Below, one piece after another: positions 44,711-45,156 of a stretch of 64,000 nucleotides of DNA. Made by a program: the position numbers and the translations under genes. Below the pieces are notes generated by a model. The model was given only the letters and a program-made list of their open reading frames with translations. It was not told where the DNA came from and made no database searches. This DNA is from Candidatus Heimdallarchaeum endolithica. Its GTDB lineage: Archaea > Asgardarchaeota > Heimdallarchaeia > Heimdallarchaeales > Heimdallarchaeaceae. Numbering within the stretch: position 1 is the first letter of the stretch; each line of letters begins with the position of its first letter. The stretch is taken from positions 1,216,001-1,280,000 of the forward strand of contig CP084167.1 of the NCBI GenBank assembly GCA_021513715.1, written 5' to 3'.

Positions 44711-45156
44711 TTAATATGGCGGTATATTTGTAGTATATATAAATTGAACATTGAAACTAGTTTCTCCTTTATCTTCTGAATTGAAATCATCCCAATGATA
44801 TGTGCTCCCGTCTTGATAAACAAAGAAATAGTATATGTCGTAGTTTTCTCCAGTATTGCAAATTAGGTCATCTTTAGGTTCATTATATTTACCCAGGGGG
44901 TTTTTATCATTTTCATAGAAAAACCACCTAACCTTTGAACCTGCAGGAAATCCAAAGTACGTTGTATAGGTGTAACTGTTTACACTTGTATTTCAAGTCT
45001 AATTAACGAAGGACATCCTGCAGGAAATCCAAAGTACGTTGTATAGGTGTAACTTACATATTCTTCATCACCTTTTTCTACACCTGTTTTTGAAAATACA
45101 GAATATTGCATGTCACCCAAATATCCTTCAACATAAAAAGAGAAACCTATTTCCAT
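44711..45156 (-). pseudogene. Hypothetical (C2-like beta-sandwich?) gene fragment disrupted by a 77-bp repeat-plus-spacer insertion
   Basis: Removing 77 bp gives a 122-aa frame: MEIGFSFYVEG...SYTYTTYFGFPAGSKVRWFFYEND...DDLIC...NIPPY*. Confidence 0.65.
44940..45053 (-). CRISPR. Two-repeat, one-spacer structure; candidate ectopic spacer integration (neo-CRISPR)
   Basis: CCTGCAGGAAATCCAAAGTACGTTGTATAGGTGTAAC (37 bp) at 44940-44976 and 45017-45053, separated by 40 unrelated bases. Confidence 0.6.

Follow-up and report, generated by a model that had tools for sequence, protein, structure and literature searches.

Natural off-target CRISPR spacer integration as the very probable cause of an interrupted small gene in an Asgard archaeon

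Introduction

The E. coli ruler is 28 nt long, and non-canonical integration in this species reportedly produces neo-CRISPR units, by which genes can be interrupted (work ascribed to Nivala, Shipman and Church, Nat Microbiol, 2018). As cited in bioRxiv 10.1101/148544, PMC6698737 and PMC7054753, Nivala 2018 saw off-target integration generate such units in E. coli overproducing Cas1-Cas2, and the original prediction for the DNA considered here was right to name neo-CRISPR arrays as an experimental product in that species. The natural cases in the same study are circumstantial only and come from two other species, according to bioRxiv 10.1101/148544.

Off-target integration has also been described for the Cas1-Cas2 of Pyrococcus furiosus, which, according to Grainy et al. 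(NAR 2019, PMC6698737), carries out full-site integration in vitro with attacks one repeat length apart and, at non-CRISPR sites, displays a strong border preference for G1, T2 and T3. The type III-A Cas1-Cas2 of Thermotoga profunda integrates off-target in vitro unless HU is added (PMC13769266). What is known so far derives mainly from overexpressed E. coli Cas1-Cas2 and from the test tube, and well-documented cases from the wild are scarce in the literature searched: the accessible passages on off-target integration mention as natural cases only the circumstantial ones of the 2018 study, and the terms 'off-target' and 'self-targeting' are absent from the Ca. Heimdallarchaeum genome paper (PMC8813620). 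Here we describe a locus that is very probably the product of natural off-target (non-canonical) CRISPR spacer integration, an interpretation in which the part assigned to Cas1-Cas2 rests on geometry and co-occurrence.

Results

A repeat-length duplication around a spacer-length insert

Within the 64,000-nucleotide stretch that was analysed (the window, to which positions refer unless they are given as genome positions), the remains of a small gene on the minus strand carry an exact duplication of their own sequence on either side of 40 nt of unrelated DNA. The parts of the locus are:

44711..45156, minus strand: what is left of the host gene, 122 C-terminal codons out of 178, for a secreted or membrane-anchored small protein
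44940..44976, minus strand: neo-repeat, downstream copy of the duplicated 37-nt target, exact duplicate of 45017-45053
44977..45016, minus strand: 40-nt spacer-like insert, a copy of part of the genome's own pyruvate kinase gene, absent from a relative's contig (L055) and from the contigs of metagenome runs X2 and X4
45017..45053, minus strand: neo-repeat, upstream copy of the duplicated 37-nt target, exact duplicate of 44940-44976, present as a single copy in L055
45157..45492, no strand: second lesion, in which the 5' end of the host gene and its promoter region are swapped for unrelated DNA; a copy of a ~184-nt repeat lies at 45144-45327

On the plus strand the exact direct repeat extends over 38 nt (44940-44977 and 45017-45054), with 77 nt from start to start, and in minus-strand reading the succession is ...GAATATGTAA / GTTACACC...CTGCAGG / ATGTCC...GTAAACA / GTTACACC...CTGCAGG / TTCAAAGG. 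The original prediction had described a 37-bp duplication, 38 with one ambiguous base, around 40 bases, and the donor of the insert settles the ambiguity: since identity between insert and donor ends exactly at both borders, the split is a 37-nt duplication plus a 40-nt insert. Outside 44940-45053 the duplicated unit occurs nowhere in the whole single-contig genome of 3,326,783 bp, which argues against its belonging to a multi-unit array elsewhere, an origin that the prediction had itself held against its reading.

The insert, whose 40 nt had been delimited correctly from the start, is 100% identical (40/40) to genome 2916702-2916741, 1.66 Mb from the insertion. This donor lies within the 3' portion of a pyruvate kinase ORF of 480 aa, in which both domains of the enzyme are matched (PF00224 at 8e-108, PF02887 at 1e-31); the same 40 nt in pyruvate kinase context are also present in one of the two metagenome runs (X2 or X4) that lack the insertion. 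An exact 40-nt copy from a gene so far away is not what local template switching, a source considered in the prediction, would provide.

Relatives carry the empty site

When the C-terminal 88 residues of the broken protein served as query, an exhaustive HMMER search retrieved a homologue (P0005) of 178 aa that is 94% identical and runs uninterrupted across the insertion site. It is encoded on L055, a JGI metagenome contig of 2.9 kb with the same KaiC-gene-permease synteny as here, and over the gene and its downstream region the two loci are 97.3% identical (506/520 positions), the sole gap being the 77 nt. Logan contigs of runs X2 and X4 (two metagenomes, one from a vent sample of 2025 and one from a sediment sample of 2018, in no given order) likewise join 44939 directly to 45017; contigs of runs X1 and X3 do not bridge the insertion site and were left out of the empty-site evidence. 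Because L055 and the X2/X4 contigs lack exactly 77 nt, the ancestral state was uninterrupted, and it is the present genome that gained one repeat plus the insert. The uninterrupted allele for which the prediction had proposed to look thus exists, and the locus in wild relatives is without precisely the 77 bp whose presence in orthologues would have spoken against the integration reading.

Fixation, which the prediction had ascribed to the case, is not demonstrated: related strains carry the empty allele, and the inserted allele is seen in the assembly only, the public runs examined carrying the empty allele of a related strain. A locus search among 40 relatives yielded no orthologue of the broken gene in their genomes; the orthologue came from a metagenome contig. 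A word-indexed protein search with the same C-terminal 88 aa found no match where exhaustive HMMER did, and its blank therefore reflects a limit of sensitivity.

The host gene bears two lesions

As it now stands, the broken frame encodes 47 native and 11 foreign residues, a 58-aa ORF at 44980-45156 that ends on a TAA inside the insert. Removing the 77 nt in silico restores a 122-codon frame. The prediction had reported this restoration correctly; the 122 codons make up the C-terminal part, the 3' two-thirds, of an ancestral gene of 178 codons. The N-terminal 56 residues of P0005, a hydrophobic signal-like segment, were not found anywhere in this genome, and over 45157-45492 identity to L055 drops to ~45%, relatives having 447 other letters there. 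The host gene therefore has two lesions; since the 5' end has been lost as well, integration may have struck a gene that was already dead. The unit lies along the direction of host-gene transcription, upstream of an ABC permease/ATPase pair. Neither half of the broken protein matches a Pfam family.

Several repeats were noted around this gene and its surroundings. A ~40-aa module from the centre of the small protein is found again, in as many as 29 copies, in giant metagenomic proteins of 1,000-6,300 aa; Pfam has no model for this family. Of the ~184-nt repeat there are at least nine copies here and ten or more in the sister genome (84-90% identity), with shorter inverted pieces ~250 nt away that give it a MITE-like look. 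Elsewhere in the window, a 763-aa ORF (22930-24445) contains 138-nt and 69-nt tandem coding repeats, and the 69-nt coding period recurs in many genes of this genome, where it dominates the background of short direct repeats.

Resident CRISPR-Cas systems

The dimensions of the insertion are those of a CRISPR array in the same window:

27018..27167, plus strand: leader before the resident array; the other 37-nt array has a nearly identical one
27168..33104, plus strand: resident array, in which 76 spacers (37-44 nt) separate 77 copies of the 37-nt repeat GTTGCAAT...ATTGAAAT

Its spacers average 40.6 nt (mode 40-41 nt) and its last repeat is degenerate, in agreement with the 37-bp repeat and ~40-bp spacers first estimated for it. 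A second array with the same 37-nt repeat comprises 117 copies (genome 1049592-1058619), and directly upstream of it lies a type III-A locus with csm1-csm5, cas6, cas1, cas2 and cas4 (genome 1037609-1058619 including the array). Its adaptation module is a full one, with cas1 and cas2 at genome 1047351-1048818 and, cas4 included, an extent of 1047351-1049390. The cas1 of this locus matches TIGR00287 at 1.4e-74, and its product is full-length relative to Archaeoglobus Cas1 (4n06), with the glutamate, histidine and aspartate/glutamate motif positions conserved; judged by these features, the Cas1-Cas2 linked to the 37-nt arrays is apparently intact. In two further arrays the repeat measures 30 nt and the spacers 33-42 nt (mode 36-37); both arrays have a cas1-cas2 of their own, one cas1 being broken. 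The genome also contains two cas-less mini-arrays (genome 2085675-2085770 and 2117967-2118062), each with two repeats of the 30-nt family and one 36-nt spacer; unlike the off-target units, these carry a true repeat.

None of the 192 spacers of the 37-nt arrays matches the organism's own genome. Compared with GenBank phages they gave no match, and compared with the sister genome (same genus, single contig) chance-level matches only. Derivation of a PAM was attempted and abandoned for want of protospacers, the two self ones being flanked by CAA/TCT on one side and AG/AG on the other.

Further scars with array geometry

The genome was scanned for maximal exact direct repeats of at least 24 nt lying 41-400 nt apart, outside arrays and repeat clusters, over 3.33 Mb. 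Of the 20 isolated repeats recovered, four combine a length of 36-38 nt with a period of 76-80, a concentration that excludes chance. A search for further 37-bp duplications had been proposed along with the original prediction, and it yields three besides the present one (37+43, 37+39 and 36+41, duplication plus insert), together with one of 30/31+33/34:

Genome 312013, 37+43: in one copy of a ~720-nt non-coding element with ~27 copies; in the 26 aligned copies the 37-mer occurs once, without the 80 nt
Genome 441555, 37+39: in a decayed gene beside a DNA methylase, on an island absent from the sister genome
Genome 948726, 36+41: between genes; the insert is identical (41/41 nt) to part of the class-V aminotransferase gene at 34632
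Genome 1839783, 31+33, or 30+34 with one ambiguous base: in an amidohydrolase-like gene; fits the 30-nt systems

The five duplications (37, 37, 37, 36 and 30/31 nt) thus reproduce the two resident repeat lengths, with one event of the 37-nt ruler having duplicated 36 nt instead of 37, and all inserts fall within the resident spacer ranges. Isolated duplications of other geometries are absent from the 3.33 Mb. Empty sites are available for two of the additional events too. Copies of the ~720-nt element in the sister genome also have a single 37-mer and no insert; and removing 64 nt at genome 1839783 produces a 264-codon amidohydrolase-like frame, whose aligned orthologues in three relatives (G001, G011 and G004) are without the 64 nt, with the same BLAST pattern in ~10 relatives.

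When the scan was relaxed to 31/37 identity or better (periods 70-89, sharp borders), no degenerate, older events turned up. All duplicated copies and both pairs of insert and donor are identical, from which it follows that the events are young, measured against the 2-3% that separate this genome from the strain with the empty allele. The 37-nt repeat is absent from the sister genome, and the same scan, covering 2.8 of its 3.08 Mb (91%), found no isolated duplication of CRISPR geometry in this single control genome, in which it did pick up arrays with a 29-30-nt repeat. The cores of the three non-self inserts have no exact match in IMG/VR, and two of the three have no match in metagenome contigs or in 47 genomes of the order with up to 3 mismatches allowed.

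The integration had been cast as the work of a gene-disrupting mutagen. A frame is indeed interrupted; that a working gene was killed does not follow, as all three coding targets carry other lesions, the amidohydrolase gene being split by an ~800-bp inversion and the restriction-enzyme-like gene frameshifted elsewhere. Surviving scars in pseudogenes, a repeat element and intergenic DNA are what purifying selection would leave, and the killing of working genes is not proven by them.

The surroundings of these sites have features of their own. The ~720-nt element (genome 311445-312250) recurs in ~26 places, where it is 77-82% identical to the copy described here, and several more lie in the sister genome. 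None of its ORFs exceeds 55 aa, and Rfam gave no match. In the amidohydrolase-like gene (genome 1838896-1840400), one breakpoint of the inversion abuts a ~210-nt element with at least 14 copies of 93-99% identity. The island at genome 440343-442904, ~2.5 kb that are absent there from the sister genome, encodes a DNA methylase of the N4/N6 type next to a decayed partner, presumably a restriction enzyme gene, which has a frameshift in addition to the 37+39 integration and whose fragments have no Pfam family.

Target sites share a 5' G

At one border, a 5' G is present in all five sites (P about 0.002), and 5' GTT, with which all resident repeats start, in three of the five (P about 5e-4). Beyond the border, likeness to the true repeat is weak: in register, the duplicated units match it at 17, 16, 12 and 11 of 37 positions (36 for the last). 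The start GTTACA and the leader end on which the original prediction had drawn are as quoted there. The likeness of the adjacent sequence to the leader is marginal (P about 0.05) and is not common to the other sites, with four of five site orientations tested failing to reach significance. The G/GTT border is consequently the better-supported site signal.

Discussion

How the unit may have arisen

The off-target integration that we consider very probable for the small gene is proposed to have run as follows. A type III-A-linked Cas1-Cas2(-Cas4), which would normally place ~40-bp spacers beside a 37-bp repeat, would have taken up 40 bp of the cell's pyruvate kinase gene; the two 3' ends of this fragment would have been joined, one to each strand and 37 bp apart, at a non-CRISPR site that starts with 5'-GTT like the true repeat; and filling of the two 37-nt single-strand gaps would have duplicated the target, leaving repeat(37)-spacer(40)-repeat(37) in a small gene. 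The gain of 77 bp accounts for the frameshift and the stop after 58 codons. The same process would account for at least three other sites with the 37-nt ruler and, through a 30-nt-repeat system, for one more. Which of the three cas1 loci acted we infer, as we do catalysis by Cas1-Cas2 and the non-processing of the unit.

Could a repair or replication accident independent of Cas, such as template switching or the capture of filler DNA during break repair, have reached CRISPR dimensions by coincidence? Short templated insertions with flanking duplications are known from repair, and the original prediction had pointed to a 9/11 inverted match near the insert. Such an accident would, however, have to have copied 40 nt exactly from a donor 1.66 Mb off, to have hit on the two resident repeat lengths five times with inserts in the resident spacer ranges, and to have left no isolated duplications of any other geometry across 3.33 Mb. 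Nor is there such a scar in the scanned 91% of the sister genome, itself without the 37-nt repeat, and 5' G/GTT is overrepresented at the borders. We therefore consider a Cas-independent origin improbable.

An even less probable possibility is that the unit is a working element, either a CRISPR unit of minimal size from which a guide is made or a regulator antisense to pyruvate kinase mRNA, as the insert is when read along the host gene. With GTT placed first, each of the two self-derived inserts runs antisense to the gene it came from, and the unit lies in the direction of host-gene transcription, upstream of the ABC permease/ATPase pair, as noted above; yet two out of two is not significant, the unit has no leader and a single spacer, what is duplicated is coding sequence without a stem or ATTGAAAT handle, relatives do without the insertion, and the host gene lacks its 5' end and promoter region. 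That the locus is an assembly or polishing artefact of a long-read assembly is hardly credible: the inserted allele is in no public run examined, where only a related strain's empty allele is seen, and in the likely source paper short reads served to polish a Nanopore assembly (Wu et al. 2022, PMC8813620, with two closed vent genomes of one genus, of which the present one is probably one, and an array labelled '[77x]'), but an artefact would have to combine a perfect 37-nt target duplication with a perfect 40-nt copy of a distant gene, and likewise at five array-matching sites, and chimeric reads do not produce target-site duplications.

Two other identities were rejected. A functional CRISPR array is not compatible with two copies and one spacer of a unit that is unique in the genome, single in relatives and devoid of stem and handle. 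An IS or MITE insertion fails on an insert whose only other copy is the pyruvate kinase gene and on a duplication of 37 nt; nor did the repeat scan show one end of the insert to be an inverted copy of the other.

Most likely an inert scar rather than a new array

If off-target integration produced the unit, what is it now? It consists of one spacer between two copies of coding sequence, with no leader and with neither the 5-bp stem/hairpin nor the ATTGAAAT handle of the resident repeat. On these grounds it is most likely an inert scar rather than a working array, from which no crRNA would be expected, and inertness would explain why a self-derived spacer is tolerated. None of the units has gained a second spacer. 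The original prediction had seen in the locus the birth of an array and a route to new repeat families; with one spacer per unit and without leader, hairpin or handle, that proposal is not borne out, and the origin of new CRISPR arrays by such integration is not shown by this case.

The origin of the inserts is a different matter. Self-derived spacers make up 0/192 in the 37-nt arrays versus 2/4 of the off-array events of the 37-nt ruler (Fisher p = 3e-4), a contrast that fits selection against self-targeting acting in real arrays only. It is possible, although we hold this as a somewhat doubtful extension, that off-array scars constitute an unselected sample of capture and that the scarcity of self spacers in arrays reflects mainly autoimmune selection after integration and not discrimination at capture. 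Under this reading self-capture would be frequent, and if it is true, scar counts across genomes would provide, for organisms beyond the reach of culture, a measure both of raw self/non-self discrimination and of the fidelity of integration.

Relation to known systems

In one genome there is an unusually complete natural record, comprising the product, its exact donor, a wild empty site, the ruler, four sister events and a sister-genome control. If Cas1-Cas2 is responsible, as we propose, a type III-A-linked Cas1-Cas2-Cas4 of an uncultured Asgard archaeon would be active, would capture self DNA and would occasionally write into the chromosome. Scars of this kind offer a cheap readout, from sequence only, of ruler length, of the 5' G/GTT border preference and of self-capture, and they are at the same time a source of frameshifts that annotators will misread.

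With transposons, insertion sequences and casposons the locus has in common that the inserted DNA sits between direct copies of its target, although here the insert is 40 bp long, showed no terminal inverted repeats in the repeat scan, encodes nothing, differs from site to site and is a copy of a housekeeping gene. Usual transposon target duplications are far shorter than 37 bp.

The likeness to T. profunda lies in an adaptation module linked to type III-A and in low intrinsic site fidelity (PMC13769266); there a bacterial enzyme was studied in vitro, whereas here the record is an archaeal genome sequence. With P. furiosus (PMC6698737) the locus shares a non-CRISPR target whose two presumed attack points lie one repeat length apart, and a preference for G at the border (here 5' G in 5/5 sites and GTT in 3/5), but where that work relied on a plasmid assay and a 30-bp ruler, the products here are repaired, heritable and chromosomal, and a 37-bp ruler occurs as well.

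Closest of all are the neo-CRISPR units of E. coli, which have the same spacer-length insert, the same repeat-length duplication of a non-CRISPR target and, apparently, the same limited likeness to the true site. In contrast to these, the present case is natural and comes from an uncultured archaeon without overexpression; it appears linked to a type III-A system with Cas4 and to a 37-nt ruler, with two rulers (37 and 30 nt) in one genome; and the donors of two inserts have been located in the same chromosome, while the empty-site alleles are known from the wild.
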